Of a DNA stretch of 32,000 nucleotides, positions 1 to 26,969 are shown piece by piece. Positions within the stretch are counted from its first letter, which is position 1; the number at the start of each line of letters is the position of its first letter. The notes beneath the pieces are model-generated. The model searched no databases. It was not told where the DNA came from and saw only the letters and a program-made list of their open reading frames with translations. Source of the DNA: Geotalea uraniireducens Rf4. GTDB lineage: Bacteria; Desulfobacterota; Desulfuromonadia; Geobacterales; Geobacteraceae. The stretch spans positions 2,310,001 through 2,342,000 of the forward strand of contig NC_009483.1 of NCBI RefSeq assembly GCF_000016745.1, read 5' to 3'. The translations under genes were made by a program, and so were the position numbers.

Positions 1-1
1 C

Positions 2-754
2 GACGTAAATCCGCCCAAGGTGGCATTGGCATGCCGTCTGGTCTCAACGGGAGAAAATCCGGTTATTCTCGGGATCGATTCTGTTGCCTTGTCCGGTGAC
101 GACTCACCCGGCTTGCTCGGGCTCGGCCTGATAGAAAAACCGGGCGAGCTTATGGATAATGCCCTTAATCGCATCTCGGCATCCCTTTATCGTCAATTTG
201 AAGGGGTAAACGACATGAACGTCAGCCAACCGTGGATGAAAAAATTCAAGCCCAGGATATCTTACCGTTCGCCGAGCCTGGATATGGAACAGAAGCATAC
301 CATTGCGGTCATTCCGTTCCTTAATAAGAGTGGCCGCAAGAATGCCGGAGAGATTTTGGCGCTCCAGTTTGTCGAACAACTGGCAAAGATGAAAAAATTC
401 AACGTAATCGAACCGGGTATCGTTCGCCAGGAATTCCTGAAATTCAGGATCATCATGGAAGGGGGGGTCTCCCTTGCCAATGCCGATGTCATTTTCACCG
501 ACCTGGATGCCGACCTGATCTTCACCGGGGAGGTAATGGATTATCAGGACTATCAAGGCGCCATGGGCACCCCCACGGTCGGTTTTTCAATTATCGTGCT
601 GGACAGAAAAAGCCGGGAAGTTGTCTGGGCCTCTGAAAGTTACAACGATGGTGATGACAGGGTCTACTTTTTCGATGTGGGAAAAGTAAAGACCGCCGAA
701 GCAATGGCCTCTCAAATGACCCATGCGGTGGTGGATATGATGACGATAAAATAA
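2..754 (+). CDS. 5'-truncated envelope protein with a TolB-N/LpoB/CsgG-type alpha/beta lipoprotein fold (possibly DUF799-like); likely the last member of an upstream channel or lipoprotein set
   Basis: The frame is open from the window edge: no stop lies between nt 2 and the GTG at 20, and no signal peptide is visible, so the true start is upstream. The motif HTIAVIPFLNKSGRKNAGE is followed by FNVIEPG, LIFTGEVMDY and VGFSIIVLD, which matches the IAV(L/I)PFxNxSG pattern of TolB-N/LpoB/CsgG-like domains. The stop is at 752-754, and the next gene follows in the same direction after 60 nt. Confidence 0.5.
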   Translation, partial: DVNPPKVALACRLVSTGENPVILGIDSVALSGDDSPGLLGLGLIEKPGELMDNALNRISASLYRQFEGVNDMNVSQPWMKKFKPRISYRSPSLDMEQKHTIAVIPFLNKSGRKNAGEILALQFVEQLAKMKKFNVIEPGIVRQEFLKFRIIMEGGVSLANADVIFTDLDADLIFTGEVMDYQDYQGAMGTPTVGFSIIVLDRKSREVVWASESYNDGDDRVYFFDVGKVKTAEAMASQMTHAVVDMMTIK

Positions 755-814
755 GATGTGGTTCAACGGGCAGGGCGTTATGCAGACAAACTGGAAATAA
801 TAAAAGGGAGCACT

Positions 815-2572
815 ATGAAACGGATTGCCAGGGTATCAGAAATTTGTTTGATCAGCTTGTTGCTTACCGGAACTGTCGGTTTCGCAGCCGACCAGAAGGA
901 GTTGCCTGCAATTGTCAAAGAGGACGTGAAAGAGGGTGCTGTCCCGGTTGCAGAGACACAAATTACCTTGAAGGTGCCTCTTTTTTCGCCGCTTTTTGCC
1001 TCTTTTCCCGTGGCAACGGTAGGTGACGAGCAGGTAACACTCGATGAGCTCAATAAATCCCTTGCAGCGCTCCATGAAAGGGCGGGTGAGGATAAAACTG
1101 CCGGCAGGAAAAAGTACGTCACGGTCCTCAATCGGCTCATCAACAGCAGACTGATCGTCCAGGAAGCAGAGAGCATGGGGCTTGAAGAGTTGCCGGAAGT
1201 GAAGCAGAAGCTGGACGATTTCCCCAGGATGGCCTTGAAGGAAGAGTTGAAAGACCTGCAGATAAAGAGTCTGCAACCCGATGCAACTGAAGTGGAGAAA
1301 TACTACAAGGAAGCGGTCAAGGAATGGAAGATAAAATCGGTAAAATTCGAGAAAGAGGATGATGCGAAAGAGCTGGCGCGGACAGTTCAAGCCGGCGGCA
1401 ATTTCGATGAACTGGTCAATACGCTTATTGACAGCGGTAAGGCTACGGGAACCAAGGAGGGGGAGTACGTAAAGGCCAGGGATCTTCTTCCCCAGGTGGC
1501 GAACGTCGTAGCAGGAATGCGGGCCGGTTCGGTGAGCCCGGTTATCCAGGTAGGGCCGTCTTATGCGATCTTCAAGCTTGAAGACGTGCGCTATCCTGCC
1601 GGCAATGCCGAGGCGCAGGACGCGGCACGGGAGCAGGCACTCGCCATGAAGCAGATCGAGGCTCTTGCTGCGTACAACAAGTCGCTGACCAAAAAATATG
1701 CAAAAATCAATCAGAAACTTCTGGATAAACTGGATTTCGAGGCTGCAAAACCGGGATTCGCTCAACTCTTAAAGGACAGAAGGGTTGTCGTGGAGATCAA
1801 GGGGGACAAGCCGATAACGGTTGCCGATATGGCGGAATCCCTCAGCCAGAAGTTCTTCCACGGTATTGATGAGGCGATCAAGGGGAAGAGAATTAACGAG
1901 CAGAAGATGTCTGCCCTTTATGACATATTTTATGCCAGGCTGTATCTCAAGGAAGCGAAAAAACTGGGAATTGACAAGACCGGGCATTACAAAGACAGGA
2001 TCAAGGATTTCAAGGATTCTCTGCTCTTCGGCATGTTCATCCAGAAAGTCGTAGCCCCTGAAATCAAGGTGAGCGATGACGAAACCAAGGCTTACTATAA
2101 CAAGCATATCGGCGACTATTCAACCCCGGAGCTGTTGAGAATCAAGGGGCTCGCCTTCACCCGGAAGGAGTATGCCGAAGCCGCCATCGACAAGTTGCGA
2201 AAAGGGACGGAGTATCAATGGTTGCAGGCCAATGCCGAGGGTCAGGCAGCTAAAGAGAGCGCGGGATTACTCGAATTTTCCCCAACGCCGGTTACCCGCA
2301 ACGGTCTTCCGGAAAAAATGCAGGAGGCGACGGCAGGGGGAAAGGCGGGAGAATACCGGCTGTATGAGAGCCCCGAAGGGTTTTTCTATGTCCTGTTGAT
2401 CCAGGACGTGGTTCCGGCAAAACCTCAGCCGCTGGAAAATGTCCAAAAAGTCATCGTCAAGAAACTGTTCAATGCCAAGCTTAATCAGGCGGTTGAAGAA
2501 TGGGGCGTTAAGCTGAGGGATGCCTATAAGGTGCAGGTCTATATAACCGACTTAGGAGCTGTAAACAAATAA
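815..2572 (+). CDS. Periplasmic SurA/PpiD-like chaperone with two parvulin (PpiC-type) peptidyl-prolyl isomerase-like domains
   Basis: ATG 815 is preceded by AAGGGAG (804-810); the ORF-track start at 758 lacks an RBS. The signal peptide is MKRIARVSEICLISLLLTGTVGFAADQ. A helical SurA-N-like region precedes two parvulin-like segments (GGNFDELV...GSVSPVIQVGPSYAIFKLEDV and GEYRLYESPEGFFYVLLIQDV). Confidence 0.65.
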   Translation: MKRIARVSEICLISLLLTGTVGFAADQKELPAIVKEDVKEGAVPVAETQITLKVPLFSPLFASFPVATVGDEQVTLDELNKSLAALHERAGEDKTAGRKKYVTVLNRLINSRLIVQEAESMGLEELPEVKQKLDDFPRMALKEELKDLQIKSLQPDATEVEKYYKEAVKEWKIKSVKFEKEDDAKELARTVQAGGNFDELVNTLIDSGKATGTKEGEYVKARDLLPQVANVVAGMRAGSVSPVIQVGPSYAIFKLEDVRYPAGNAEAQDAAREQALAMKQIEALAAYNKSLTKKYAKINQKLLDKLDFEAAKPGFAQLLKDRRVVVEIKGDKPITVADMAESLSQKFFHGIDEAIKGKRINEQKMSALYDIFYARLYLKEAKKLGIDKTGHYKDRIKDFKDSLLFGMFIQKVVAPEIKVSDDETKAYYNKHIGDYSTPELLRIKGLAFTRKEYAEAAIDKLRKGTEYQWLQANAEGQAAKESAGLLEFSPTPVTRNGLPEKMQEATAGGKAGEYRLYESPEGFFYVLLIQDVVPAKPQPLENVQKVIVKKLFNAKLNQAVEEWGVKLRDAYKVQVYITDLGAVNK

Positions 2573-2645
2573 CATGGGCATCTTGCACGCAATTTTGACC
2601 ATGATATTCATTTACAGCTCCTTAGGTAAATCGTGGAGAGAAATC

Positions 2646-4622
2646 ATGCCGGCATTACTAAATAAAAGAATATCCGTAAGTTCCTTGTTGCTGATAATCT
2701 TGTGCGGTTCCGCGGTGCTTTTAGCAAGCAAGCCTTCGCTGGCGGCGAGGACCTTTGCCCGCAAGGAATGCCTGGACTGCCACAAAAAATTTGCTGATAA
2801 ATACCTGTCCATGAAAGACGTTCATGGCGTGGTCAAGGAGAAGAAGTGCGAGGAGTGCCACCTCCGCCATGGGGTGGTCCCAAAGTTACTCCTGAAAGAG
2901 ACGGGCAACACTCTCTGCTTTAAATGCCACAGCAAAGAAAAAGCAGCGATGAACAAAGGCAACATCCACACGGCGCTCAAGACCGGCAAATGCACCCTCT
3001 GCCACAATCCCCATGCCTCCAACGGCAGCCATCTCCTGAAGGCGGAGGGGAACGACGTCTGTTTCCAGTGCCACAAGAAAGAAGGATACCAGAAGAAGTT
3101 CGTCCACGGGGTGATAACGAAGGAGGGGTGCCGGGCGTGTCATTTCTCCCACAGCTCGGACGAAAAGTATCTCCTGACAAAAGCGGAGCCCAAGCTCTGC
3201 CTTGCCTGCCATGACAGCGCCAGTGCGGCATTCAGGAAAGCCCATGGAAGCTACCCGGTGGAAACGAAACGCTGCACCATCTGCCACACCCCCCATTCGT
3301 CCGATCAGGCAAAGCTCCTGAAGACAAGCACCCACAATCCGGTCACCTCGGCCGGATGCGATGGTTGCCACGACGCCGCGACATCGCCTAAGCCGTTTGC
3401 GACCACAGCGAGCGGCAGCGCCCTCTGCTACCAGTGCCATGACGCAAATACCCTCAAAGCCGGCGGAACCATGGAACACGCCCCTTTCAAGGGTGGCAAC
3501 TGCCTCGCCTGTCACAATCCCCATACCTCCGACTATCCGAAGCTCCTGGCCGACGATGGCAACAAACTCTGCTTCGGCTGTCACAAGGAAAAGGCGGCCA
3601 CTCCGGCCGTTCCCCATGCAGCGGTCAAAAACGGAAAAGGGTGTCTCTCCTGTCACAAAGCCCATGCTGCACAAAACAAGGGGCTTCTTCTGGCAAAAGA
3701 TGCGGAGCTTTGCTTCCCCTGTCATGCCAAGACCAGGGAGGCACAAAAGAGTAAGAACGTCCATGTCCCCTTTGCCGGTGGTGAGTGCAGTGCCTGCCAC
3801 AACCCCCATGGCTCGAATATCCCGAATATGATGAAGGACAGGATGGACAATGTCTGTTACAGCTGCCATCCCGATGCCGAGACCAAGTTCAAGAAGACGT
3901 ACACCCATAAGCCGGTGGCCGATGCCAACTGTACCGCCTGCCATAAGGCACATGGGTCCGAAGACAAGAAACTCCTCAAGTCGACCGGGGCCAAGCTATG
4001 CAGCCAGTGCCATGGCGAACTGATGAAGGAGGCGGTGGGTGGCTCCAATCATCTGCCGTTTAAAGGCGGTGAGTGCCTCACCTGCCATGACACCCATGGC
4101 AGCAATGTGGCGGGAATGCTGGTCAAGAAACAGGATTCCTTGTGCTTCGACTGTCATGTTGAGACGGAGAAAGGGCTCAAGAGCGCCAAAAGCAAACATC
4201 AGCCGATGGTAACCGGGGAGTGCTGCAAATGTCACAGCCCCCACAAGTCGTCGCTCAACAAGCTTCTGCTGGCGCAGAGCCCGGACATGTGTCTGACCTG
4301 CCATAAGGCCCTCAAAGAGAAGATCACCAAGGAGAAAGTCCATTCGCCGGCGGCAAAGGATTGCCTGCAATGCCATAATCCCCATTATGCGGCCTCATCC
4401 TCCCTGACCGTCCAGCCGATGCTGGAGTTGTGCGGGCAATGCCATGACACGAAGGACGCGGTCTTTAACAAGGATCACCTCAACATCGCCGCCGCTGCCA
4501 TGAATTGCATGAGCTGCCATAATCCCCACGCCTCACAGGACCCGAAATTCTTCAAGGAGACGACCCATGCGCCCTTTGCGGCAAGGTCGTGCGACGATTG
4601 CCATATCGTCGGCAAGCAGTGA
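2646..4622 (+). CDS. Secreted multihaem c-type cytochrome with 26 CXXCH motifs, built from repeated dihaem modules
   Basis: ATG 2646 follows GGAGAG (2634-2639). The N-terminal signal or anchor is ISVSSLLLIILCGSAVLLASKPSLAA. I counted 26 CXXCH motifs in 658 aa, about 25 aa per haem. The recurring unit is H-x(6-9)-CxxCH-xPH-x(8-12)-LL-x(6-9)-CxxCH. Confidence 0.9.
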   Translation: MPALLNKRISVSSLLLIILCGSAVLLASKPSLAARTFARKECLDCHKKFADKYLSMKDVHGVVKEKKCEECHLRHGVVPKLLLKETGNTLCFKCHSKEKAAMNKGNIHTALKTGKCTLCHNPHASNGSHLLKAEGNDVCFQCHKKEGYQKKFVHGVITKEGCRACHFSHSSDEKYLLTKAEPKLCLACHDSASAAFRKAHGSYPVETKRCTICHTPHSSDQAKLLKTSTHNPVTSAGCDGCHDAATSPKPFATTASGSALCYQCHDANTLKAGGTMEHAPFKGGNCLACHNPHTSDYPKLLADDGNKLCFGCHKEKAATPAVPHAAVKNGKGCLSCHKAHAAQNKGLLLAKDAELCFPCHAKTREAQKSKNVHVPFAGGECSACHNPHGSNIPNMMKDRMDNVCYSCHPDAETKFKKTYTHKPVADANCTACHKAHGSEDKKLLKSTGAKLCSQCHGELMKEAVGGSNHLPFKGGECLTCHDTHGSNVAGMLVKKQDSLCFDCHVETEKGLKSAKSKHQPMVTGECCKCHSPHKSSLNKLLLAQSPDMCLTCHKALKEKITKEKVHSPAAKDCLQCHNPHYAASSSLTVQPMLELCGQCHDTKDAVFNKDHLNIAAAAMNCMSCHNPHASQDPKFFKETTHAPFAARSCDDCHIVGKQ

Positions 4623-4635
4623 AAAAGGAGTCACT

Positions 4636-5919
4636 ATGAAGTCATCATCAGGAATAGCAGTTGCTCTGTTTACGGTAATCATTTCCCTGATTGTTATTTC
4701 ACTCTCGTATTCCCAGGAGAGTGCGCTGAAGTTTAAACTGAAACCGGGCGCCAATGGCAAGCTCTGCTTGAACTGCCATGCCGGTTTCCAGGAGAAGCTC
4801 AAGAAACCTTTCGTGCATACGCCGGTAAAGGCGGGGGAGTGTACCGGTTGCCACAGTCCGCATACGTCATCACACGGCAAACTGCTCGCTGCCGATCCCA
4901 AAAAAATCTGCTACTCGTGCCATGCCCTGATCTCCCATGCGACCGACCGCAGCGTGCACAAGGTGGTTGCGGAAGGGAACTGCGTAAAATGCCACGATCC
5001 CCATGCTGCGAACAACAAGAATAACCTGCTGAAGGCCGGCAACGAGCTTTGCCTGGAATGCCACAAAGGGATGGGAGACACCCTTGCGAAGGTTAAATTC
5101 AAGCACACCCCCGTGGCAAAGGGATGTCTCAACTGCCACGACCCCCATGCATCCTCAAAATTCGGGTTTCTCCTGAAGAACGATGTGCCCGCTCTCTGTA
5201 TCGGCTGCCACAAGATTGACCGGCCTATCTTTGCCAAGCAGCACATGAACTATCCGGTGGCAAAGTCCCGTTGTACCTCCTGTCATAATCCGCACGGTTC
5301 CGATAATCCGGGCATACTGTTCAACACCGTGCACAAACCGGTTGCCAACAAGCAGTGCAACCAGTGTCACGATGAACCAACCTCGGCAGCTCCCCTCAAC
5401 ACTAAACGGATAGGCTATGAGTTGTGTAAAGGTTGTCACAACGACATGGTGAATCGGACCTTCGGCAAAAAACAGATGCACTGGCCTTTGCTCAGCAAGG
5501 AAGGTTGCCTGACCTGCCATAATCCCCATGCAGCGCCCAGGAAAGGGTTGTTGAAGGACAACATGATTTCACTGTGCGGCAAATGCCACAAGGACACCAT
5601 AAAACGACAGGAGCAGTCGCTCACCAAGCACCAGCCGATCCAGGAGGGAGATTGCGCAGCCTGTCACAACCCACATGCGTCGGATAATCCGTTTCTCACT
5701 ATCCAGCCGTCGACGATCGAGTTGTGCGGCGCCTGCCATGACTGGCAGAAGCATTCAACCCATCCGATCGGGGACAAGTTCAAGGACCCGCGAGACAAGA
5801 ACATTACGGTGCAATGCCTGAGCTGTCACCGGTCCCATGGTACGGAATACAAGCATTTCATACCGTTCTCCACCACCACGGAGCTCTGCACCCAGTGCCA
5901 TGAACAATTAAAGAGGTGA
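4636..5919 (+). CDS. Secreted multihaem c-type cytochrome with 16 CXXCH motifs, same dihaem-module family
   Basis: ATG 4636 follows AAGGAG (4625-4630) and lies 14 nt after the upstream stop. The signal peptide is SSSGIAVALFTVIISLIVISLSYSQ. There are 16 CXXCH motifs in 427 aa, with the same CxxCHxPH modules as the upstream gene. Confidence 0.9.
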   Translation: MKSSSGIAVALFTVIISLIVISLSYSQESALKFKLKPGANGKLCLNCHAGFQEKLKKPFVHTPVKAGECTGCHSPHTSSHGKLLAADPKKICYSCHALISHATDRSVHKVVAEGNCVKCHDPHAANNKNNLLKAGNELCLECHKGMGDTLAKVKFKHTPVAKGCLNCHDPHASSKFGFLLKNDVPALCIGCHKIDRPIFAKQHMNYPVAKSRCTSCHNPHGSDNPGILFNTVHKPVANKQCNQCHDEPTSAAPLNTKRIGYELCKGCHNDMVNRTFGKKQMHWPLLSKEGCLTCHNPHAAPRKGLLKDNMISLCGKCHKDTIKRQEQSLTKHQPIQEGDCAACHNPHASDNPFLTIQPSTIELCGACHDWQKHSTHPIGDKFKDPRDKNITVQCLSCHRSHGTEYKHFIPFSTTTELCTQCHEQLKR

Positions 5920-5923
5920 AACG

Positions 5924-6835
5924 ATGAGAACAGGTCCAATACGTCATATGTTCATTGCCGCTGCCCTGGTCTGCCTCCTGCCCGTGCTTTGTTGCGGCGC
6001 CGAGACGGTAAAACTGAGGCATATAACGACTCTCTACGCCGATGAAAAAGGTGGCGAGCTGAAAAATCCCGCAGGGGTGGCATGCAACGAGACTTCTCTG
6101 CTGGTTGCCGACTCGGGAAACGGCCGTCTACTCCGCTACGCATTGCAGGGAGACGTGCTGAAAGGTGGGGCCGAGATCAAAATTCCTCAGCTTGCCAATC
6201 CGGTCAGAGTCCAGTTCGGTCCGAAGGGGGAGTTATTTGTCTTCGATGCCAAACAGCGCCGAATAGCACGTTTGAGTAGCGACGGTGCCTTTATCGGCTA
6301 TCTTGACCCCCAAGGCGTGCCTGCTCCGGCATCCTATGTTCCCACTGGCTTCAAAATCGACACCGAAGGCCGCATCTATCTGCTCGATATCTTTTCAGAA
6401 CGGGTGCTGATTCTGGATCAGGCCGGGAAATACGTGGCGCAGATTCCGTTCCCTAAAGGATACGGGTTTATTGTCGATCTGGCTGTAGACGCAAAGGGGA
6501 GCATTCTGTTGATGGACAGCGCCGATGCGACGATCTTTACCGCCGCCAAAGACGCCGCCGTATTCACTCCCTTGGTAAAAAACCTGCAGGAATATATGAA
6601 TTTCCCCGGTTACATCACTACCGATTCCCGGGGGATCATCTACGTGGTGGACCAGAACGGCGGAGCAATCGTCATTTTGGGCCAGGACGGCTCTTTCCTG
6701 GGACGGCAGTTGAGCATGGGGAGAAAGAACGGTCTCCTCTACTACCCTGCGCAAATCTGCCTGACCGGTGCGGATAGTCTGTTTGTTGCAGACAAGGATA
6801 ACAGCAGGGTTCAGCTGTTTGAGATGGTCAGATAG
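5924..6835 (+). CDS. Secreted six-bladed NHL-repeat beta-propeller protein
   Basis: ATG 5924 lies 5 nt after the upstream stop, and the RBS AAGAGG (5911-5916) sits immediately upstream of that stop codon (5917-5919). It has a hydrophobic N-terminus. Six NHL-like blades can be read: NPAGVAC..LLVADSGNGRLLRY, NPVRVQFGPKGELFVFDAKQRRIARL, GFKIDTEGRIYLLDIFSERVLILD, IVDLAVDAKGSILLMDSAD, YITTDSRGIIYVVDQNGGAIVIL and YYPAQICLTGADSLFVADKDNSRVQLF. No CXXCH motif is present. Confidence 0.75.
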   Translation: MRTGPIRHMFIAAALVCLLPVLCCGAETVKLRHITTLYADEKGGELKNPAGVACNETSLLVADSGNGRLLRYALQGDVLKGGAEIKIPQLANPVRVQFGPKGELFVFDAKQRRIARLSSDGAFIGYLDPQGVPAPASYVPTGFKIDTEGRIYLLDIFSERVLILDQAGKYVAQIPFPKGYGFIVDLAVDAKGSILLMDSADATIFTAAKDAAVFTPLVKNLQEYMNFPGYITTDSRGIIYVVDQNGGAIVILGQDGSFLGRQLSMGRKNGLLYYPAQICLTGADSLFVADKDNSRVQLFEMVR

Positions 6836-6871
6836 TTTGCCGCATACACTAAATTGAACGGAGTAGGTGTA

Positions 6872-7390
6872 ATGAAACGATATACCGTTGTAACTTTACT
6901 TGGTCTGATTTTCTCTTTTGCAGCAGTTTTGTCTGCCCGGGCTGATTTCAACACCGGCCTCAGGGCTTATCAGCAGAAGGACTATGCAACGGCGCTGCGT
7001 GAATTCAAGGCCGATGGAGGCGCCCAGTCCAGCTACGCCCTCAGCATCATCTATTACAAGGGTGAGGGTGTGGAGCCGAACCGGAAGGAATCGGTAAAAT
7101 GGCTGCGCAAGTCCGCTGAGCAGGGGTTTGTCCGGGCGCAATACAATCTTGCCATGATGTACGACAAGGGGGACGGCGTTAACAAGGACCAGACCGAAGC
7201 CGCCAAGTGGTATCGGAAGGCGGCAGAAAAAGGGCATGCCCAGTCCCAGTTCAATATAGGCCTCATGTATACCAACGGTGAAGGGGTAGGCAAAGACAAA
7301 AAAGAGGCGGTAAAATGGTTACGCAAAGCCGCAAAGCAAGGGCATCCAAACGCGCAAAAACTTTTGAAGGTAATGGGTGAAAAGTATTGA
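6872..7390 (+). CDS. Secreted Sel1-repeat (TPR-like) protein, about 4 repeats
   Basis: ATG 6872 follows GGAGTAGG. The signal peptide is MKRYTVVTLLGLIFSFAAVLSARA. Sel1 units repeat: SVKWLRKSAEQGFVRAQYNLAMMYDKGDGV, AAKWYRKAAEKGHAQSQFNIGLMYTNGEGV and AVKWLRKAAKQGHPNAQ. Confidence 0.85.
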   Translation: MKRYTVVTLLGLIFSFAAVLSARADFNTGLRAYQQKDYATALREFKADGGAQSSYALSIIYYKGEGVEPNRKESVKWLRKSAEQGFVRAQYNLAMMYDKGDGVNKDQTEAAKWYRKAAEKGHAQSQFNIGLMYTNGEGVGKDKKEAVKWLRKAAKQGHPNAQKLLKVMGEKY

Positions 7391-7421
7391 TATATTGCAT
7401 GTTCAAAAGGGGAGATTCTTT

Positions 7422-7748
7422 ATGAAACCGCTGAAAATGATCTGCCTCGTCTTTCTTATGATGACGGTTCTCATCCTGGGGTGCAACAGGACCGAGTCAC
7501 GATTGGTGGGGAAATGGAAAAATGTAAGCATGCCCGAAATTGTTGAATTCAGGGATAACAAGACGGGGGTGTTCGTTGTGCAGGGAAACCCCGGTCTGCC
7601 ATTTACCTGGACGGTTGTGGAAGGCAAGAGGGTAAAAATCGATATTCCTTATATGGGCAGAATCCAAACCTTGTTCGGAAAGGTTGCCGACGATGCCTTT
7701 GTCCTGGAAGGCAAAGGTGAACAGGCGGTCTACAAGAAAACCGAATAG
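7422..7748 (+). CDS. Small predicted lipoprotein (108 aa), function unknown
   Basis: ATG 7422 follows AAGGGGAG (7407-7414). A signal peptide ends in the lipobox-like LILGC. This is the last gene before the terminator. Confidence 0.6.
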   Translation: MKPLKMICLVFLMMTVLILGCNRTESRLVGKWKNVSMPEIVEFRDNKTGVFVVQGNPGLPFTWTVVEGKRVKIDIPYMGRIQTLFGKVADDAFVLEGKGEQAVYKKTE

Positions 7749-7792
7749 GACCGCATCGCCGAATCAAACCGAGCCTGGCGGTTTTCAGGAAC

Positions 7793-7826
7793 AAAAGGGG
7801 CGCTCCTGAAAGGGCACCCCTTTTTT
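7793..7826 (+). terminator. Rho-independent terminator of the cytochrome operon
   Basis: AAAAGGGG (7793-7800) pairs with CCCCTTTT, and an inner GCTC/GGGC stem extends the hairpin. It is followed by a T6 run (7821-7826), 45 nt after the stop at 7748. Confidence 0.75.
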
Positions 7827-7867
7827 ATGGTTCATCCCAGCAGTGTCCGTTAAGTTTTTGCATCCGC

Positions 7868-7999
7868 ACTTTCCCCCTCACCCTAACCCTCTCCTTTAGG
7901 CCCGCAATTTGGGTCCACAAGGGGCGAGGGGGCTTTAAAGCTCCCCTCCCTCGATGGACCCAAAGGGCCTAAAGGAGGGGGTGGGGGAGGGTGAAATTC
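7868..7999. repeat. Long imperfect palindrome (REP/MITE-like intergenic element) between convergent genes
   Basis: The left arm TTCCCCCTCACCCTAACCCTCTCCTTTAGGCCC...TTTGGGTCCA (7871-7917) is the near reverse complement of TGGACCCAAAGGGCCTAAAGGAGGGGGTGGGGGAGGGTGAAA (7955-7996). The inner segment GAGGGGGCTTTAAAGCTCCCCTC is itself nearly palindromic. Confidence 0.7.
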
Positions 8000-8025
8000 C
8001 GGGTCCAGTGAACGGCTGTTGTTAG

Positions 8026-9120
8026 TCAGATGGTTCTCTCACCGCCCAACGTAAAATAGAAGGTCGCCCCCTTGCCCGGTTCCCCCTCGGCCCAGACCTT
8101 TCCTCCATGGCGCCGGATGATCCTCTCCACCGTGGCCAGACCGATGCCCTCCGTTGCGAGTTCCTCCGTGCCGGGCAGAGGTCGGAATGGCTTAAAAAGT
8201 CTGTCGGCATGCGCCATATCGAATCCTGTTCCGTTGTCCCGCACGAAACAAGCGGGCATCCCTTCCACTTCTGTCAACCCGATTTCGATGACCGCATCCT
8301 CGCGCTTGTCCGTATGCTTCCAGGCATTGTCGAGGAGATTATTCAGAGCCAGTTGCAGCAGGTTCCTGTCCGCATTAACCTTGATTCCATCGGCAATCCG
8401 AAATGTGACCCGGCGTTCGGGTTTCGTTATCCGGAGTTTCTCTGTTATTTTGCCGGCCATTTCGCTCAGGTCTATGGCTTCCAGATGGAGATCAATCCTC
8501 ATCGGTCTGAAGAAATCATGCATGATGCCGATGAGTTTGCCCAGATGCCTGGTTTTGTCGTAGATGCGTTTCGCATAATTTATGCACTGTTCGTCGACAT
8601 TTTTGCTGGAGAAGTCCTGGATTGCGCGCGCATTATCCCCGATTGACATCAGGGATTTGAGCAGGTCGTTGGAAACGGTGTAGCTGAATGACTCCAGGTC
8701 CCTGTTGGTCGCCTCCAGTTCGGCGGCGTGGGCAGCGAGCTCGTTCTGCAACTCGACTATCCGCCTTCCTGCGTTGAGGCGAACCTTCAGTTCGTCGGTC
8801 TTGAGCGGTTTGGTGATGTAGTCGTCCGCTCCCGCCTCCATGCCGACGACCAGGTCTTCGTCCTTCTGCTGTGAAGTCAGGAGTATGATGTAGATGTAGT
8901 GTCCCATCGCCTCTTTTCTGATCTTCCTGCATAATTCCGGACCGTTTATCCCCGGCATCAGCCAGTCGAGAATGGCCAGCCGCGGGGCGTCCTCGGCCCG
9001 CAGGGCCTGCCAGGCTTCGTTGCCGTCTTTGGTGACGACCACCTCGTACCCCCATCTGGCCAGCGTCTCTTCCAGGAGGAGGCGAAAAGCAGGTTCATCT
9101 TCCGCTATCAGGATCTTCAT
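8026..9120 (-). CDS. Response-regulator receiver fused to a HisKA/HATPase_c histidine-kinase core, with a degenerate H-box (His replaced by Asn)
   Basis: ATG at 9120 (minus strand) follows AAGGAGA. REC motifs are present: MKILIAEDE, LAILDWLMPG, LLTS and ITKP. A coiled-coil linker precedes the H-box region LESFSYTVSNDLLKSL. The N-box NLLDNAWKHT, G1 box DNGTGF, F box FKPFRPL and G2 box GIGLATVERI are intact. Confidence 0.85.
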   Translation of the reverse strand: MKILIAEDEPAFRLLLEETLARWGYEVVVTKDGNEAWQALRAEDAPRLAILDWLMPGINGPELCRKIRKEAMGHYIYIILLTSQQKDEDLVVGMEAGADDYITKPLKTDELKVRLNAGRRIVELQNELAAHAAELEATNRDLESFSYTVSNDLLKSLMSIGDNARAIQDFSSKNVDEQCINYAKRIYDKTRHLGKLIGIMHDFFRPMRIDLHLEAIDLSEMAGKITEKLRITKPERRVTFRIADGIKVNADRNLLQLALNNLLDNAWKHTDKREDAVIEIGLTEVEGMPACFVRDNGTGFDMAHADRLFKPFRPLPGTEELATEGIGLATVERIIRRHGGKVWAEGEPGKGATFYFTLGGERTI

Positions 9121-9561
9121 ATGTAATTCTCCTTTTACCCAGCGTTGTCCGGTCAATAATTTGCGTAGGCTGATGTTTTGTAAAAAAGGGTTTCTGTAGG
9201 GGCGCGGCCTTGGCCCGCCCTTGTCGTCAAATCCGACCCTGTTGCTCTATTAACACCAGTCAAAGGCGGACCCTTGCTCTCGCTGCCATTTGGAATCGAG
9301 TTGAGTGTTTGTTAATATTATACAGGAAGAGTAGGGGGGGACAAGTCGGGAGGTGAGTTCATATTTTGAGGGAAGAGGCGTAACATTGAAGCCGGAGAAC
9401 ATAAATCCGGTGATGCAGTATTATAGCTAATGTTTGATAGAATAGGATAATGGAGGAAGATGTTAGGCAAAAGAACCCGCGCCTCAATAGACATTTTCCC
9501 CGATGATGTGGCAACAGGCCGTTTCGGCCTGACACACGGGTTTTATTTAGAGGAGGTATCT

Positions 9562-10161
9562 ATGATAACGACGCTGCTGGAAGGGAACAAACGGTTCGTA
9601 GCGGAAACCTTTGAAAAGGAAAAGGAATTCTTCGCCGAGCTGGCCAAGGACCAGAAACCGACTGTCCTCTGGATCGGCTGCTCCGACTCGCGGGTGCCTG
9701 TGAACACCATCACCCAGACCAAGGCGGGAGAGGTCTTCACCCATCGCAACGTGGGGAACATCGTCGCCACCAACGACTGGAACCTGTCAGCAGTGCTGGA
9801 GTTCTCCATCAACCACCTGCGCATACCCGACGTGATTATCTGCGGCCACTACGGCTGCGGCGGCATCGCCGCCCTTGACGAGGAAAACATTGAGGACAAG
9901 TACATCCCCATCTGGCTCATCAACTCCTACAAGGCAAAAGAGCGGGTGGACGAGAAGCTTAAGGCGCTGCACATCGAAATCCCCCACGAGCAACGTATGA
10001 ACCTGATCGTAGAGGAAAACGTCCGCCTCCAGCTGGAACACCTTCAGGAATACCCGTTCGTACGGCGGGCAATGACAGATAAGAAGCTCAATCTCCACGG
10101 CTGGGTGTACGACATGTACAACGGTGAGATCAGGATCGTGAAAACCCACAAAAATCGCTGA
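9562..10161 (+). CDS. Beta-class carbonic anhydrase
   Basis: ATG 9562 follows AGGAGG (9551-9556). The zinc-ligand motifs WIGCSDSRVP and ICGHYGCGGI are present. The length of 199 aa is typical for the family. Confidence 0.9.
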   Translation: MITTLLEGNKRFVAETFEKEKEFFAELAKDQKPTVLWIGCSDSRVPVNTITQTKAGEVFTHRNVGNIVATNDWNLSAVLEFSINHLRIPDVIICGHYGCGGIAALDEENIEDKYIPIWLINSYKAKERVDEKLKALHIEIPHEQRMNLIVEENVRLQLEHLQEYPFVRRAMTDKKLNLHGWVYDMYNGEIRIVKTHKNR

Positions 10162-10220
10162 TTCCAGCCTCTAAAGGACTTGGAAGAAACCTTTACCCAA
10201 AAATAATAAGGCATCCGGTA

Positions 10221-10249
10221 TTGACGGGGGTATGGCTACAGGTTATACT
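10221..10249 (+). promoter_or_regulatory. Near-consensus sigma70-type promoter for the toxin-antitoxin operon
   Basis: TTGACG (10221-10226), a 17-nt spacer, then TATACT (10244-10249), about 22 nt upstream of the antitoxin ATG. Confidence 0.5.
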
Positions 10250-10271
10250 AAATTCAAAAAGAGGTATAACC

Positions 10272-10526
10272 ATGCAAGCGATCAAAACTGCCATCTCAAT
10301 CGAAAAGAATCTCTTTGATCAAGCTGAAAAAATAGCGCGCACAATGAAAGTTTCGCGCAGCAAGCTGTTCGTGATGGCGCTTCAGGACTTCATCGAGCAC
10401 CAGAAAAACAAGGAACTGCTCGCACAGATCAATGCGGCTTACGCCGACGAACCTGACGCAACGGAACAAACCCTTCGCAGAAAAGCACGTCGGCAACATC
10501 GGCGCATAGTGGAGGGTGAATGGTGA
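10272..10526 (+). CDS. Ribbon-helix-helix (CopG-like) type II antitoxin
   Basis: ATG 10272 follows an AAGAGG-like RBS. The N-terminal RHH pattern is IKTAISIEKNLFDQAEKIARTMKVSRSKLFVMALQDFI, and the C-terminal tail is charged. Its stop overlaps the toxin start (ATGGTGA). Confidence 0.75.
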   Translation: MQAIKTAISIEKNLFDQAEKIARTMKVSRSKLFVMALQDFIEHQKNKELLAQINAAYADEPDATEQTLRRKARRQHRRIVEGEW

Positions 10527-10876
10527 TCAATCAAGGAGATATTTACTGGATAGAACTTGACGAGCCCGAAGGTTCGGAACCAGGTTACAAGCACCCTCAC
10601 GTCATCGTACAGAACAACCTGTTTAACCGCAGTCAGATCAGAACAGTCCTCGTATGTCCTCTCACTACTAATCTCAAGCGCGCAAGCGCACCTGGCAATG
10701 TACTTCTCGATAAAAAAGAATCAAACCTGCCCAAGCAAAGTGTCGTCAATGTTACGCAAGTTTTTACCGTGGATAAGGCGCAACTGGACGAGTATGTCGG
10801 AACTCTTTCATCCAAGCGAATTACTGAAATTCTAAATGGTATCAAGCTTGTTCTGGATCCGCGTGAACCGGATTGA
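10520..10876 (+). CDS. mazF: PemK/MazF-family endoribonuclease toxin
   Basis: GDIYWIELDEPEGSEPGYKHPHVIVQNN...VLVCPLTTN...VNVTQVFTVDK matches the MazF/PemK signature. It is translationally coupled to the upstream antitoxin. Confidence 0.85.
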   Translation: MVINQGDIYWIELDEPEGSEPGYKHPHVIVQNNLFNRSQIRTVLVCPLTTNLKRASAPGNVLLDKKESNLPKQSVVNVTQVFTVDKAQLDEYVGTLSSKRITEILNGIKLVLDPREPD

Positions 10877-11078
10877 TGCTTGTCATGTTATTTGAACTCT
10901 AACAATGGGACAGTTCCTTGCCCGGTAAGAGAGGTGATTTGTTCAGGGTAACTAGCGTGTTATACTTGATGCATGCAAAGTAAATAGTGGTCAAGTTCTG
11001 ACCTGTTAAACCGAAATGTGTTCTAAGGGCACCGCAAGACTGCCATGTCGAGCGCGGCAAGACACAAGGAGTTAACAG

Positions 11079-12305
11079 ATGAACAGACTCAAGCTATCTA
11101 CGTTTCTCGTTGCCGCTGTTCTTGCAGCCGGAGTCCCCGCCGCTCAGGCGACGCCATTCCATGCCGGCGGCACCGGCAACTGCGATGGATGTCACGGTCC
11201 GAACTTTACCGCAGGAAGCTACTCAACATTGCGCGGCGTTGATCCTGGCTCGACCTGCCTTCGTTGCCATGGCGCAGCCAGGCCGACTGAGCATCAAATA
11301 GCCACTCATCCCGTTCCGCCCAAGGGAATTCCTCCCGTGTCCCTTACCCCCGGCGGCGATTTTGCTTATCTGCGGAAAAACTATTTCTGGGGCGATTCCA
11401 ACGGCAAGCGTGGCATAAGTCCCGGAGAAAGACACGGACACAACATCGTTGCAGCCGCTTACGGCTATTCCCGGGACACGGCCCTCCTCGGTTCCCCGGG
11501 CGGCTCATATCCGGCTGATGCCCTATCCTGCATCAGCTGCCATGATCCCCACGGGAACTACCGGGTGCTGGACAGATACGGCACTGTTTCGAGCGAGGGG
11601 AACCCCATCGGCGAGGCGGGTTCTTACGGGGCAGCAGCAACAAGCGCCAGTTCCGTCGGCACTTACCGCTTGCTGGCCGGCAAGGGATATCAAACAAAAT
11701 CTGCCGGGCACGTTTTTTCCTACGATCCGCCGATGGCCGTTTCCCCCACCAGCTACAACAGATCCGAGGCAAGTTCTGATACGAGGGTTGCCTACGGCAA
11801 AGGGGTGTCGAAATGGTGCGCAAACTGCCACGAAGGTTTCCTGTCTGGGACGAGCCATATCCACCCGGCTGACGTGGAGCTTGGTGTGGCAATAGCCGCG
11901 ACCTACAACAATTACGTGAAGTCCGGCGATCTTACCGGCATCCGGGCCACCGCCTATACCTCGCTGGTCCCGTTCCAGAGTGGCGAAGTGACCGACCCGC
12001 AGCAACTGTCTGCCGAGTTGACTTCTACCGCCGGTCCCAACCCGGACGACAGGATAACCTGCCTTACCTGCCATCGGGCCCATGCCTCCGGCTGGGACAG
12101 CATAGGCAGGTGGAACATGAAGGGGGACTTCCTGACCGTGGCCGGCGCGTATCCGGGAATCGACACCAATGGTACGGGGAATTACGGCGAGAACTCCACC
12201 GGCAAACTCAGAACCGAGTATCAGGCGGCCATGTACGGCCGGGACGCATCCGGATTCGCAACTTTTCAACGGCAGCTTTGCGATAAGTGCCATGCGAAGG
12301 ATTGA
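11079..12305 (+). CDS. omcS: OmcS-family hexahaem c-type cytochrome (nanowire-forming family)
   Basis: ATG 11079 follows AAGGAG (11066-11071), and the signal peptide ends in AAQA. There are six CXXCH motifs: CDGCH, CLRCH, CISCH, CANCH, CLTCH and CDKCH. Long collinear blocks match G. sulfurreducens OmcS as I remember it: FH.GG..C.GCH, LTPGGDF, GER.GHNIVA, PGG..PA..L.C.SCHDPHG.YR, GSY, G.YR.L.G.GYQ.KS, AV.PSTYNR.EA...TRVAYG.G.S.WCANCH, YN.Y.KSGDLTG..A.AY.SL.PF, C.CHRAHASG.DS and the terminal QR.LC.KCHAKD. Confidence 0.9.
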   Translation: MNRLKLSTFLVAAVLAAGVPAAQATPFHAGGTGNCDGCHGPNFTAGSYSTLRGVDPGSTCLRCHGAARPTEHQIATHPVPPKGIPPVSLTPGGDFAYLRKNYFWGDSNGKRGISPGERHGHNIVAAAYGYSRDTALLGSPGGSYPADALSCISCHDPHGNYRVLDRYGTVSSEGNPIGEAGSYGAAATSASSVGTYRLLAGKGYQTKSAGHVFSYDPPMAVSPTSYNRSEASSDTRVAYGKGVSKWCANCHEGFLSGTSHIHPADVELGVAIAATYNNYVKSGDLTGIRATAYTSLVPFQSGEVTDPQQLSAELTSTAGPNPDDRITCLTCHRAHASGWDSIGRWNMKGDFLTVAGAYPGIDTNGTGNYGENSTGKLRTEYQAAMYGRDASGFATFQRQLCDKCHAKD

Positions 12306-12490: not shown

Positions 12491-14065
12491 ATGCATTCAA
12501 AGGCGCTGTTTAAACAGGCATGCTACAGCGGAGCAAGACTCTGCATACTCATATATTTGTCGATTCTCGCTGCAAATTATCTCAACAGCAGGAATTTTTC
12601 GGATTCTTTCAGCAAAACCATGATAAAGGTTCATGCCGAAGCCAAAATCGGCTTGGATTCCAACGAACTGTCAAAACTCATCATCGAAAAAAATTATACG
12701 AAACTGCAGGAATTGCTCGACAGGAATTACAGTATCTATGCGCTGGTAATCACTGACTGTATAACCGAGCAAGAATACTGTAGCGGACAAAATATACTGT
12801 TTGCCACCAATCCGAAACTGATCCGGGAAAAACAGATAAAGGTCGAGGATCTGATCAACTATCCCTATCTGTTTTTACGCCGCCCATCCTCCTCCATCCT
12901 TCAGCTTCTCGAACAAAAGGAAAAGAAAACGGCAAGATCGGGCGAGATCATAGGCCGGGTGTATTCCATCAGCACCATACCGAGCTTTGAAGAAGATTAC
13001 CGGTCATGGCTGAGAGATCCCTTCCGGGAAAACGATTTGTGGCGAAAATACCTGCTAACCATGACCAGTTGCCTGCTCGGCGGGGTTTTCGTCTGGTTGA
13101 TCGTCGAGCTGTTCCTGAAAATCCGGAGAATAGAGCAGCGCAACGCCAGGCAGAGAGAAAACGAGCTGATCAAGGATGCTGATACCTATCTCGGGCAGCT
13201 GGAGGAGAAGGGGAGCCAGATCGAAGAGCAGGAGCGGCGTTCCACCAGGCAGTTCGGAGCGTACATCGCCAGGATAAAGGAACTGGAGCAGAAGTTGCGC
13301 AACGTGGATGAATACCGGGACATTGCCGAAACCATCATCAAGGAGCTGGAGGATGAAAAAGAGCATCAATCGGAAATCTTCAGGGACCAACTGGAAAAAA
13401 CAAACCTGGAGAAACAGCGGCTTCAGGGAGAGGTCGAAAAGTACAAGAAGGCTTCCGGCAAAGACAAGCAGGAGGCTTCCAAGGCGTTGGTGAATGCCAT
13501 AACTCCCCAGACCGGCAATGTGCTGGAGCAGCGGGTAATGACCGGAATCCTCAGTAGCCCCAAATGCCGGCGAGGTGACTGGAAAGCGGTGAACCATTTC
13601 GATGTGGCTGTCGGAAAAGAGAGCAGCCAGTTCATCGACTGCATCGTTATTACCAAAGAATGCCTCATTGTCCTGGAGGTTAAGAACTATTTCGGCGTCA
13701 TCGAAGCGGAAGGGTATCCGGAAAATTCAAAATGGCTCTGCCGTGACGGCAATAAAGTAGTTACTGTGAAAAGCGACTGGGGTGAGAACCCGTACCACCA
13801 GGTACGCGAGTATTCCATGAGTCTGCTGAACCTGGTGAAACGCCGCCTGTCGCAACTCCCCGTCTACGGGGTCGTCGTCTTTCCTGAGCTCACGGACATT
13901 TCGAGGCTGGAAAGTAAGATCGGCAAATTCTACAGGATAACGACCATCGATCATCTGCTGGCGGTGCTCGAACAGATAGAAGCGGAAGCGAGGCGGGATA
14001 ACGCCTTCAGCAAACGTCCTACCCCCGAACAGATCGAAAACCTGATTCGCGGGAAAAAAGTGTGA
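12491..14065 (+). CDS. Membrane-anchored coiled-coil protein with a C-terminal NERD (PD-(D/E)xK-type nuclease-related) domain
   Basis: There are two hydrophobic helices (about aa 14-30 ARLCILIYLSILAANYL and about aa 187-209 YLLTMTSCLLGGVFVWLIVELFL) around a ~155-aa loop. A ~120-aa E/K/Q/R-rich heptad region follows. The NERD-like core is HFDVAVGKESSQFIDCIVITKECLIVLEVKNYFG...NPYHQVREY...VYGVVVFPE. The gene is visibly more AT-rich than its neighbours. The exact start codon is uncertain. Confidence 0.7.
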   Translation: MHSKALFKQACYSGARLCILIYLSILAANYLNSRNFSDSFSKTMIKVHAEAKIGLDSNELSKLIIEKNYTKLQELLDRNYSIYALVITDCITEQEYCSGQNILFATNPKLIREKQIKVEDLINYPYLFLRRPSSSILQLLEQKEKKTARSGEIIGRVYSISTIPSFEEDYRSWLRDPFRENDLWRKYLLTMTSCLLGGVFVWLIVELFLKIRRIEQRNARQRENELIKDADTYLGQLEEKGSQIEEQERRSTRQFGAYIARIKELEQKLRNVDEYRDIAETIIKELEDEKEHQSEIFRDQLEKTNLEKQRLQGEVEKYKKASGKDKQEASKALVNAITPQTGNVLEQRVMTGILSSPKCRRGDWKAVNHFDVAVGKESSQFIDCIVITKECLIVLEVKNYFGVIEAEGYPENSKWLCRDGNKVVTVKSDWGENPYHQVREYSMSLLNLVKRRLSQLPVYGVVVFPELTDISRLESKIGKFYRITTIDHLLAVLEQIEAEARRDNAFSKRPTPEQIENLIRGKKV

Positions 14066-14066
14066 G

Positions 14067-14771
14067 TCAATTCCAGGGGGAAGTGGTGATGACCGGGGCT
14101 GCGCCTTCTGTTGCAAGTGCCGCGCAGAAGCCTTCCGGCACGGGGATATCGGCGATTGTCCACCTGGATGGCGTATCGGCAGTTGCCTGGTAATCGACAA
14201 CTGACAGTGGTTGGTCGGGGAGGAGGGAAACTGCAAAGCTGTCGGCGGGGCGGGAAAAGCCCGTGCCCAGCCCTTTGAGATAGGCTTCTTTGCGGGTCCA
14301 GAAGCGGTAGAATGCGGACAGCTGCAAGTGCGGCGGAAGGCTGAACAGCTCTTCGGTTTCCCGCGGGGCAAAGAAGCGCTGCGCCATCTCCCGGAACGGC
14401 AGATTGTCCAGCATCTGTTCCAGGTCGATACCCACCTCGCAGCTGCCCGAAACGGCCAGCACGGCTCGCCCACCCTTATGGGAGAGATTGAACCGGCGCG
14501 AACAGCTCCCTCCAGTTTCCTCAGCAAGTGAAGGCTTGCCGTGTTCCCCTTCGTTAAAGCGGAGCATCTCCGGCTCCAATCCCAGGTAATCGGCCAATGT
14601 CTCGCGGAGAAAACCTCGCCCCGCCACAAAACGGTCACGATGCTGCTGGTTGATCAGACGGTCGGCCCTGGCCAGTTCATCCGTTGACAAGAACCGCCTG
14701 AGTCGCGCCAGTTCACCTGCTTCCAGATCGAGTGACGCGAAGCGGATCTGCACCTCGCCTGCGGCCGGCAT
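14067..14771 (-). CDS. pfaE: Sfp-type 4'-phosphopantetheinyl transferase (PfaE-like)
   Basis: Motifs FNLSHKGGRAVLAV, VGIDLE and FWTRKEAYLKGLGTG are present. I prefer the ATG at 14771 (AGGGGAA RBS, 11 nt after the oleD stop). The ORF-track start at 14807 would overlap oleD by 25 nt. It is the last gene of the minus-strand string. Confidence 0.8.
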   Translation of the reverse strand: MPAAGEVQIRFASLDLEAGELARLRRFLSTDELARADRLINQQHRDRFVAGRGFLRETLADYLGLEPEMLRFNEGEHGKPSLAEETGGSCSRRFNLSHKGGRAVLAVSGSCEVGIDLEQMLDNLPFREMAQRFFAPRETEELFSLPPHLQLSAFYRFWTRKEAYLKGLGTGFSRPADSFAVSLLPDQPLSVVDYQATADTPSRWTIADIPVPEGFCAALATEGAAPVITTSPWN

Positions 14772-14782
14772 CGTTCCCCTGC

Positions 14783-17412: not shown

Positions 17413-17433
17413 CTGTTTGTTCAACCTTGCATG

Positions 17434-18318: not shown

Positions 18319-18556
18319 GGAGTATTAGTTCAATCCTTTTTTATAACTGTGGGTGGAAGAGCCGACGGAATCTCGTCCGTTCCGGTCGAGGACGAGCTGC
18401 GGACATGCACCTGTTTCTGCGCTGATCCCCGGAGCAGTAAATCAGCAGGGTTGTGGTACTCGATACAGCGGGCGGGTGTCCGCTTGCCGCTCGGCCTCTT
18501 CCTTCACTCCCGAGATCCCGCCGGCTCTTGCTCTTGGGCAGTTTCGGGACCGGTTT

Positions 18557-19600: not shown

Positions 19601-19665
19601 GGTTTACCTTCGTATAAATTCAGTTCAATCGTATTTAAATTCAGCAGTGTCAGGTTTTTGCTTAC

Positions 19666-19817: not shown

Positions 19818-19920
19818 TTGACAACCTTGATGCAAAGACCTAACCGATGACAGCGCTGAAGCGGGCGTCAGATTTGAGATGATAACAAGGCGGCGAGGAG
19901 AAAGCGACGAGCCAACGAAG

Positions 19921-26967: not shown

Positions 26968-26969
26968 AC

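Follow-up and report, generated by a model that had tools for sequence, protein, structure and literature searches.

Nucleotides 1-7748 of a 32,000-nt stretch of the Geotalea uraniireducens Rf4 genome (NC_009483.1, positions 2,310,001 to 2,342,000; this whole stretch is called the window below, and coordinates are counted from its first nucleotide) very probably constitute the 3' part of the osc (omcS companion) cluster of this bacterium, comprising a truncated oscG, the genes oscH, oscI, oscJ and oscK, and then two lineage-specific accessory genes. The osc system is already known, having been published in 2025, and G. uraniireducens is included in what is known: a 2025 preprint lists the species, so the locus is already in the literature. 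The G. uraniireducens locus therefore adds no new system, and its residual value lies in the OscI/OscJ/OscK module and in a recurrent OmcS paralogue that lacks His16 and is encoded at the end of the cluster. Among the candidates for machinery that folds a cytochrome nanowire, exports it and mounts it on the cell, osc alone has genetic support. Correct recognition of its orthologues matters for annotation. In the databases the products carry the names "peptidylprolyl isomerase" or "hypothetical protein", and NCBIfam contains no model for any of the osc proteins described here.

According to a paper citing Shen et al. (2025, Cell Chem Biol 32:239), omcS, omcT and oscC are part of the osc operon of Geobacter sulfurreducens. 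As relayed in the same indirect way, the cluster of Shen et al. corresponds to GSU2504-GSU2493, with GSU2495 being oscI and GSU2494 being oscJ, and the roles proposed are folding of OmcS for OscH, secretion for OscE, OscF and OscG, and filament morphology for OscD.

Layout of the operon

Gene starts were refined using gene calls on identical Logan contigs. In the list of open reading frames (ORFs), the seven genes of the region lie on the plus strand within nt 1-7748 and are separated by gaps of 60, 73, 13, 4, 36 and 31 nt, in that order. The first, the oscG orthologue (2-754), is open at the window edge and retains the 3' two-thirds of the gene, which encode the end of a first domain, a linker and the whole of a second domain; its 5' end lies upstream of the window. 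The ORF of the oscH orthologue opens at 758 and its likely start is the ATG at 815 (MKRIARV...), giving a gene at 815-2572. The oscI orthologue (2646-4622) encodes a 658-aa protein with 26 haems and the oscJ orthologue (4636-5919) a 427-aa protein with 16 haems, both by CxxCH count. They are followed by the probable oscK orthologue (5924-6835), predicted to encode a secreted or lipid-anchored six-bladed NHL beta-propeller, by a gene for a secreted Sel1-repeat (TPR-like) accessory protein (6872-7390), and by a gene for a small, 108-aa lipoprotein (7422-7748). A terminator-like hairpin at 7808-7824, the sole terminator-like site on the plus strand in nt 1-8400, closes the operon. N-terminal signal sequences are present in the products of oscH, oscI, oscJ, oscK and the Sel1 gene, and the last gene product carries a lipobox (LILGC).

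An initial annotation of the window, made from the sequence alone, had described seven co-directional genes with gaps of 4-75 nt and a single terminator, all encoding exported proteins: a protein of TolB-N/LpoB/CsgG fold, a SurA/PpiD-like double-parvulin chaperone, two cytochromes (26 and 16 haems), an NHL propeller with six blades, a Sel1 scaffold protein and a small lipoprotein. The measured gaps (4-73 nt) and the single hairpin before nt 8400 agree with this description, as do the exact CxxCH counts, the signal sequences and lipobox listed above, and the lipobox found in most full-length homologues of the truncated first protein. The individual protein assignments were also borne out, that of the first gene product in substance, on evidence given under each protein below.

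Correspondence with the osc cluster of G. sulfurreducens

To find the G. sulfurreducens proteins and their locus, we used a mature OmcS sequence rebuilt from a PDB alignment. The locus recovered (L032) is from G. sulfurreducens subsp. ethanolicus and encodes an OmcS that is 94% identical to PDB 6EF8. Its gene order is OmcS, OmcT, a 1017-aa protein with a spermine-synthase domain, an OmcS-like protein, a propeller, a 725-aa protein, a GNA1162-like lipoprotein and a 392-aa protein, of which the last six are, by their order, OscB to OscG; the flank, 10 kb from omcT, ends at OscG. The first protein of the G. uraniireducens operon is 45% identical over 247 aa to the protein at the OscG position (L032:20055-21233; E 6.5e-79), and the D, E, F and G proteins of Geotalea daltonii are 43, 40, 60 and 43% identical, respectively, to their G. 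sulfurreducens counterparts. Searching metagenomes with OscG gave only relatives of about 45% identity.

The 2025 preprint places G. daltonii, G. luticola and G. uraniireducens in one neighbourhood type that has the GSU2500-GSU2493 block; it also reports that the Geotalea version of the cluster has only a GSU2501-type OmcS-like gene upstream and no omcS-omcT pair. The match of the first gene product to the OscG position, the conserved gene order and the listing of G. uraniireducens in the preprint together support what the initial annotation had offered as a possibility, namely that the operon is an orthologue or a variant of the osc cluster.

Conservation of gene order across genomes

We scanned one genome per GTDB species with a single OscH peptide pattern, using no cytochrome information, and mapped the resulting loci by BLASTP. 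The scan yielded 27 loci, which were compared together with G. daltonii and are designated below by L-numbers; they come from Geobacterales, Nitrospirota (Thermodesulfovibrionia), Acidobacteriota (Vicinamibacteria), Schekmanbacteria and one Desulfosudis metagenome-assembled genome (MAG). The recurrent gene order is NHL, OmcS-like (one to three copies), D, E, F, G, H, I (26 haems), J (16 haems) and K. One to three OmcS-like genes together with E, F and G were present at every locus with at least 6 kb of sequence upstream of H (24/24). The sequence extended 4 kb or more past H at 23 loci, of which 22 contained I and J and 21 contained K. The conservation of OscI, OscJ and the NHL propeller equals that of the genes already characterised, for the chaperone and the channel. 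The initial annotation had suggested asking whether the gene set co-occurs with OmcS-family genes, and in none of the 24 informative loci was the osc operon found apart from them. This linkage, together with the orthology of OscG and the published roles of OscH and OscE-OscG, upholds the proposal that the operon belongs to a system devoted to folding and exporting a cytochrome that polymerises.

The closest genome available is that of G. daltonii FRC-32 (L003). Its genes are collinear with those of the window, and the encoded proteins share 61-79% identity with their counterparts there, the OscG homologue 61%. The first half of the G. daltonii cluster encodes an NHL protein, an OmcS-like hexahaem cytochrome, a lactonase/YncE-type propeller (D), a 739-aa protein without a Pfam match (E), a GNA1162-like lipoprotein (F) and an LpoB-like lipoprotein (G). 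The second half encodes the peptidyl-prolyl isomerase (PPIase; H), the 26-haem (I) and 16-haem (J) cytochromes, an NHL protein (K), a Sel1 protein, a 109-aa protein and a second OmcS-like protein, followed by a NERD-domain gene and a phosphopantetheinyl transferase gene. From G onward, the order in the window is that of G. daltonii except for a 3.3-kb block before the OmcS-like gene.

Two loci depart from the common arrangement. L023, from an Acidobacteriota MAG, has the order NHL, OmcS-like, D, E, F, G, H, whereas I, J and K are all missing from the 10 kb that follow, and at L011, from Schekmanbacteria, D and K are not detectable and an extra 11-haem cytochrome is encoded. These natural variants could show which parts of the cluster are dispensable.

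A protein of about 1000 aa with a spermine/spermidine-synthase domain is encoded between oscF and oscG in Acidobacteriota (L018:5794-8769, and likewise at L019, L020, L025 and L030). In G. sulfurreducens the same kind of protein (L032:11430-14483) is encoded between omcT and the OmcS-like oscC, which is the OscB position. An OscB-like gene is absent from Geotalea-type loci, G. daltonii having none within 10 kb of oscH. The gene behaves as a movable accessory part of the cluster.

The OscH chaperone

In all loci compared, oscH lies immediately 3' of the OscG homologue. Its product in the window has 100% identity with a deposited G. uraniireducens protein and matches Pfam Rotamase_2 (5.7e-29), Rotamase and, weakly, SurA_N, and the OscH family profile matches SurA, PrsA, Cbf2 and HP0175. 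An AlphaFold2 model (predicted local distance difference test score, pLDDT, 81.6) contains two modules, each consisting of a helical domain and a parvulin PPIase domain, and its best Foldseek matches are SurA, PEB4 and PrsA. Pfam, profile, model and Foldseek agree in predicting a secreted double-parvulin chaperone of the SurA/PEB4/PrsA class.

Outer-membrane components

The truncated OscG of the window has no Pfam match by itself. When Pfam was run over an alignment of 27 family members, LpoB was matched by 16, CsgG by 13 and GNA1162-like by 8, the CsgG matches being sub-threshold (best E 7e-4). The OscG family profile matches the PelC structures 9H80, 5T0Z, 5T10 and 5T11 (best E 9e-6) as well as the GNA1162 structure 4HRV, and the family alignment contains two homologous domains in tandem and, in most members, a lipobox (G-C-A). 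These matches identify the product as a predicted tandem PelC/LpoB/GNA1162-like outer-membrane lipoprotein; the fold named in the initial annotation was broadly right, but the nearest solved relative is PelC. The OscF profile matches the same PelC and GNA1162 structures, with PelC at E 3.5e-6. PelC is a lipoprotein that forms a ring under a porin.

The OscE family, represented by 24 homologues including that of G. daltonii (L003:5867-8086), consists of proteins of about 730 aa with a signal peptide and a C-terminal beta-signal, an alternating hydrophobic motif whose last residue is Phe in 19 of the 24, Leu in three, Tyr in one and Ile in one. One family member matches OMP_b-brl, and in 11 of the 24 a galactose-binding-like (F5/8 type C) domain is inserted in the middle of the protein. 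Searched against PDB sequences, the OscE profile matched neither MtrB nor any other solved structure. By these features OscE is probably an outer-membrane barrel. The window itself contains no beta-barrel gene, because its edge cuts the cluster and oscE lies, in relatives, two genes upstream of oscG. The description of the operon as "porin-less" is accordingly true of the window and not of the cluster, which carries a barrel candidate in relatives; the missing porin is an artefact of the window edge.

The PelC-like character of OscF and OscG and the barrel hallmarks of OscE suggest an export port in which the OscE barrel would sit over the two PelC-like lipoproteins, possibly arranged as rings. 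Large beta-barrels occur in most OmcS and OmcE gene regions according to a preprint (bioRxiv 10.1101/2025.10.22.684050), in which a porin-like mounting model is proposed.

The multihaem cytochromes and the genes that follow them

OscI of the window contains 26 CxxCH motifs, one every 23-28 aa, and 53 His residues, which is sufficient for bis-His ligation throughout; OscJ contains 16 CxxCH motifs and 35 His residues. Pfam resolves them into 13 and 8 Paired_CXXCH_1 units, respectively. OscJ is 32% identical to OscI across its whole length (E 2.8e-63), and by this alignment it is a shorter paralogue of OscI. The number of motifs hardly varies among loci with complete, unfragmented genes: OscI homologues have 26 CxxCH motifs at 19 of 21 loci (25 at L011 and L025), and OscJ homologues have 16 at every locus. 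GSU2495 is described in the literature as a protein of about 70 kDa with 26 haems.

Against the NCBIfam model for DmsE-family decahaem cytochromes (TIGR03508, cut-off 192.2 bits), OscI scores 304.7 bits and passes, and OscJ scores 171.9 bits and falls under the cut-off. OscI also matches PDB 6R2Q chain A (E 5e-28), which we take to be MtrA (the chain is labelled otherwise in the sequence file). OscI is a cytochrome with a minimal peptide chain, and its 13 doubled-CxxCH units are of the MtrA/DmsE type. The ten haems of MtrA span about 8 nm in the MtrCAB structure; by analogy, if they are arranged linearly, the 26 haems of OscI could extend over about 20 nm and the 16 haems of OscJ over about 13 nm, distances on the scale of a periplasm. 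The initial annotation had held that the logic of the operon differs from that of a redox pathway. Given the TIGR03508 score and the 6R2Q match, that statement was too strong: the MtrA-like nature of OscI makes a conduit function at the secretion site plausible, as a complement to the secretion role, and secretion and electron supply may share one site.

The product of the gene after oscJ matches Pfam NHL (2.6e-13), and the OscK family profile matches the six-bladed NHL propellers Pizza6, TRIM71 and PknD (E 5e-48 to 4e-31). By position, this gene is the eighth of the GSU2500-GSU2493 block. GSU2493 is, we assume, an NHL protein as well.

The Sel1 protein (Pfam Sel1, 1.2e-36) weakly resembles the TPR lipoprotein AlgK (33.5 bits, cut-off 700), and among the loci compared its gene is found only at L003, L005, L006, L009 and L021 and in the window, all Geobacterales. 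The small lipoprotein has no Pfam or NCBIfam match, and a single-sequence AlphaFold2 model is all-beta and of low confidence (pLDDT 53.6); homologues at the same position occur at L003, L006, L009, L021, L022, L024 and L026, again only in Geobacterales. From this distribution, the two genes appear to be Geobacterales-only accessory genes placed after oscK.

Model and alternative explanations

Taken together, these assignments are consistent with the following route for the filament cytochrome. Sec-exported, haem-loaded subunits of the OmcS type would be held by the double-parvulin OscH and passed to an outer-membrane assembly made of the OscE barrel, the PelC-like OscF and the tandem-domain OscG, the last two maybe forming PelC-like rings. 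The subunits would emerge and polymerise at that assembly. OscI and OscJ, as MtrA-like wires of 26 and 16 haems, would most likely bring electrons from the periplasm to the filament base at the same site, and the NHL propeller OscK would probably organise OscI and OscJ.

Several points weigh against parts of this reading, both the identity of the locus and the function assigned to it. The orthology of H, I, J and K to GSU2496-GSU2493 rests on position, haem count and transitivity, and a homologue search seeded with Geobacter-type OscH returned no G. sulfurreducens entry. The presence of oscD, oscE, oscF and the upstream OmcS-like gene in G. uraniireducens is deduced from relatives and from the statement in the 2025 preprint. 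The literature searched gives no role for OscI, OscJ, OscK, the Sel1 protein or the small lipoprotein. A preprint reports OmcS filaments made in Shewanella oneidensis (10.1101/2023.10.26.564108), a species in which no osc genes are known, so the osc machine may not be strictly required for polymerisation. Finally, the physiological need for OmcS filaments is disputed (PMC11077965).

Alternatively, the cluster could be chiefly an electron conduit, a variant porin-cytochrome complex in which OscI and OscJ thread into or dock on OscE and feed extracellular OmcS-type cytochromes, with the chaperone and the lipoproteins only helping to build it. We consider this possible, if rather unlikely. It would account for the DmsE/MtrA-type score of OscI and its match to 6R2Q chain A, and for the conservation, equal to that of the chaperone, of two proteins with a combined 42 bis-His haems, one for about every 25 aa. 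The barrel candidate of about 730 aa with an outer-membrane-protein beta-signal is encoded in the same cluster, and in OmcE clusters, as described, a large barrel is likewise always accompanied by two multihaem cytochromes and two propeller lipoproteins. However, papers citing the work on osc give folding and secretion roles to OscH and to OscE, OscF and OscG; no surface lipoprotein cytochrome of the MtrC/OmcB type is encoded at any locus; known porin-cytochrome complexes include neither PelC-like lipoproteins nor a PPIase chaperone of their own; and the charging of OmcS has been attributed to the small periplasmic cytochromes PpcA-E (PMC10954620). A conduit would, moreover, complement a folding and export machine more than exclude it.

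The PelC matches of the OscF and OscG profiles (E 3.5e-6 and 9e-6) could instead mean that the envelope genes encode an exopolysaccharide exporter of the Pel/alginate type that merely lies beside cytochrome genes, and the faint AlgK resemblance of the Sel1 protein and the F5/8 type C insert in 11 of the 24 OscE proteins point the same way. We rejected this explanation as very improbable: no glycosyltransferase, polymerase or other Pel/Alg gene is present at any locus, the invariant partners are OmcS-family and multihaem cytochromes, and the Sel1 gene is confined to Geobacterales.

That oscG and oscH are housekeeping LpoB and SurA/PpiD genes with unrelated cytochrome neighbours, an outcome that the initial annotation had itself raised, fits the shared superfamilies (in Pfam, members of the G family match LpoB most often, and SurA is the top PDB and Foldseek match of H) and was nonetheless dismissed with hardly any reservation on scores and synteny, since OscH falls far short of the cut-offs of the NCBIfam PpiD and PPIase equivalogs (50 bits against 493 for PpiD), OscG has two tandem domains, unlike LpoB, and the genes always lie between OscF and OscI beside OmcS-family genes, in several phyla, with osc synteny and no housekeeping synteny at any locus.

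Relation to known systems

The folding and export machine proposed here is closest to the G. sulfurreducens osc cluster itself, with which the G. uraniireducens locus shares the G-H-I-J-K order, an OscG of 45% identity, a 26-haem OscI, a parvulin OscH and linkage to OmcS-family genes. Geotalea differs in adding the Sel1 protein and the small lipoprotein after oscK and in ending the cluster with an OmcS-like gene whose product lacks His16, a gene that is split off in G. uraniireducens by the 3.3-kb insertion. The OmcE nanowire clusters of Desulfuromonas and Geobacter (bioRxiv 10.1101/2025.10.22.684050), compared by description only, likewise combine a filament subunit with two multihaem cytochromes, two beta-propellers and a large barrel; their subunit, however, is the unrelated tetrahaem OmcE, and their description mentions no parvulin chaperone or PelC-like lipoproteins.

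MtrCAB/DmsE conduits resemble the osc system in that OscI consists of DmsE/MtrA modules and that the relatives' clusters contain a barrel candidate of MtrB size. In contrast to these conduits, the osc cytochromes have 26 and 16 haems and not 10, there is no MtrC/OmcA-type surface decahaem cytochrome, the extracellular partner is a polymerising hexahaem cytochrome, a chaperone and PelC-like lipoproteins are added, and OscE has no MtrB match. With the PelB-PelC system, in which a dodecameric PelC ring lies under a porin, the osc system shares lipoproteins encoded beside a barrel, OscF and both OscG domains being remote PelC/GNA1162 homologues, but its presumed substrate is a protein and no other Pel genes are present. 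Curli CsgEFG, the analogy drawn in the initial annotation, offers the parallel of a channel-family lipoprotein fold combined with periplasmic accessory factors for an extracellular polymer. The CsgG matches, however, are sub-threshold, there are no CsgE, CsgF, CsgA or CsgB homologues, and osc has a separate barrel whereas CsgG is itself the channel.

The downstream OmcS paralogue

The OmcS-family hexahaem cytochrome encoded at 11079-12305 on the plus strand has six CxxCH motifs, and its residues 27-408 align over the full length with OmcS 6EF8 (E 2.3e-88). By synteny this ORF, which is of the "downstream-position" type, is the last gene of the cluster. His16 is reportedly the residue that OmcS donates to the neighbouring subunit, and we take it to be the donated ligand in what follows. 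The OmcS structure of Filman et al. has 12 axial His ligands, of which 11 come from the subunit itself and one, binding haem 5, from its neighbour.

In an alignment of 41 OmcS homologues from the compared loci, His residues 2, 13, 51, 110, 144, 147, 243, 257, 332, 335 and 404 are invariant, the window protein included, and His16 is kept in 34. The window protein has Asn instead of His16. Other downstream copies also deviate at this position, with Arg in G. daltonii (L003:17074-18297), Thr at L021:15941-17401, Arg at L022:15669-17036 and at L024:15688-17196, and Gln at L026:16149-17384. None of the downstream copies has lost any of the six CxxCH motifs or any of the other eleven axial His residues, and every copy upstream of oscD keeps His16. 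More broadly, His16 is present in 116 of 116 close OmcS homologues whose N-terminus is intact and is missing from about 10 of about 110 distant representatives with an N-terminus.

Without His16, the paralogue cannot donate the canonical inter-subunit bond, and it may therefore not be an ordinary filament subunit. The initial annotation had called this neighbouring gene "OmcS-family (filament-forming)"; membership of the family stands, and filament formation is unproven. Speculatively, the alignment would fit a monomeric protein or an end subunit. A still bolder proposal is that the paralogue serves specifically to end the filament, as a tip, stopper or base that accepts but cannot donate the His, and so fixes polarity or length, and that, with OscI and OscJ docked at OscE, the cluster forms a combined secretion port and electrical socket; we regard this as a long shot. 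For OmcE filaments, a preprint (bioRxiv 10.1101/2025.10.22.684050) explicitly looked for a stopper or tip protein in the gene cluster of the subunit and found none.

The 3.3-kb insertion and flanking DNA

The OmcS-like gene is separated from the small lipoprotein gene by a 3.3-kb block (7749-11078). The block contains a response-regulator/histidine-kinase hybrid gene on the minus strand (8026-9156), a beta-carbonic anhydrase gene (9460-10161) and a PemK/MazF toxin gene (10520-10876) preceded by a small ORF that probably encodes the antitoxin (10221-10526). In G. daltonii the second OmcS-like gene begins 140 nt after the gene for the 109-aa protein, and because the flanking genes are only this far apart there, the block is best explained as a lineage-specific insertion. 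The distance of 3.3 kb from an OmcS-family gene given in the initial annotation is thus correct, whereas the gap is an insertion into a cluster that is otherwise contiguous. Alignment of the intergenic DNA around the block with G. daltonii yielded no clear junction and no repeats.

The gene immediately following the cluster is conserved in Geotalea, Geomobilimonas and an uncultured Geobacter and encodes a NERD-domain protein of about 520 aa with a long coiled-coil-like middle (window 12491-14065; L003:18438-20006; also at L006 and L009).

The osc operon has a GC content of 0.50-0.58, presumably near the genome average of G. uraniireducens, and the idea that it forms a low-GC island was rejected: the outlier is the region from 14 to 32 kb, which resembles a polyketide synthase (PKS) locus. 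Over window positions 14000-32000, GC rises from about 0.50-0.58 to 0.62-0.67, and the minus strand encodes a phosphopantetheinyl transferase, an epimerase/3-beta-HSD, an AMP-binding enzyme, a hydrolase, a KAS III-like protein, a 2348-aa protein resembling polyunsaturated fatty acid synthases and PKSs (KS-KS-AT-FabA) and a further ORF of 1638 aa. The first genes of this PKS-like set are syntenic in G. daltonii.

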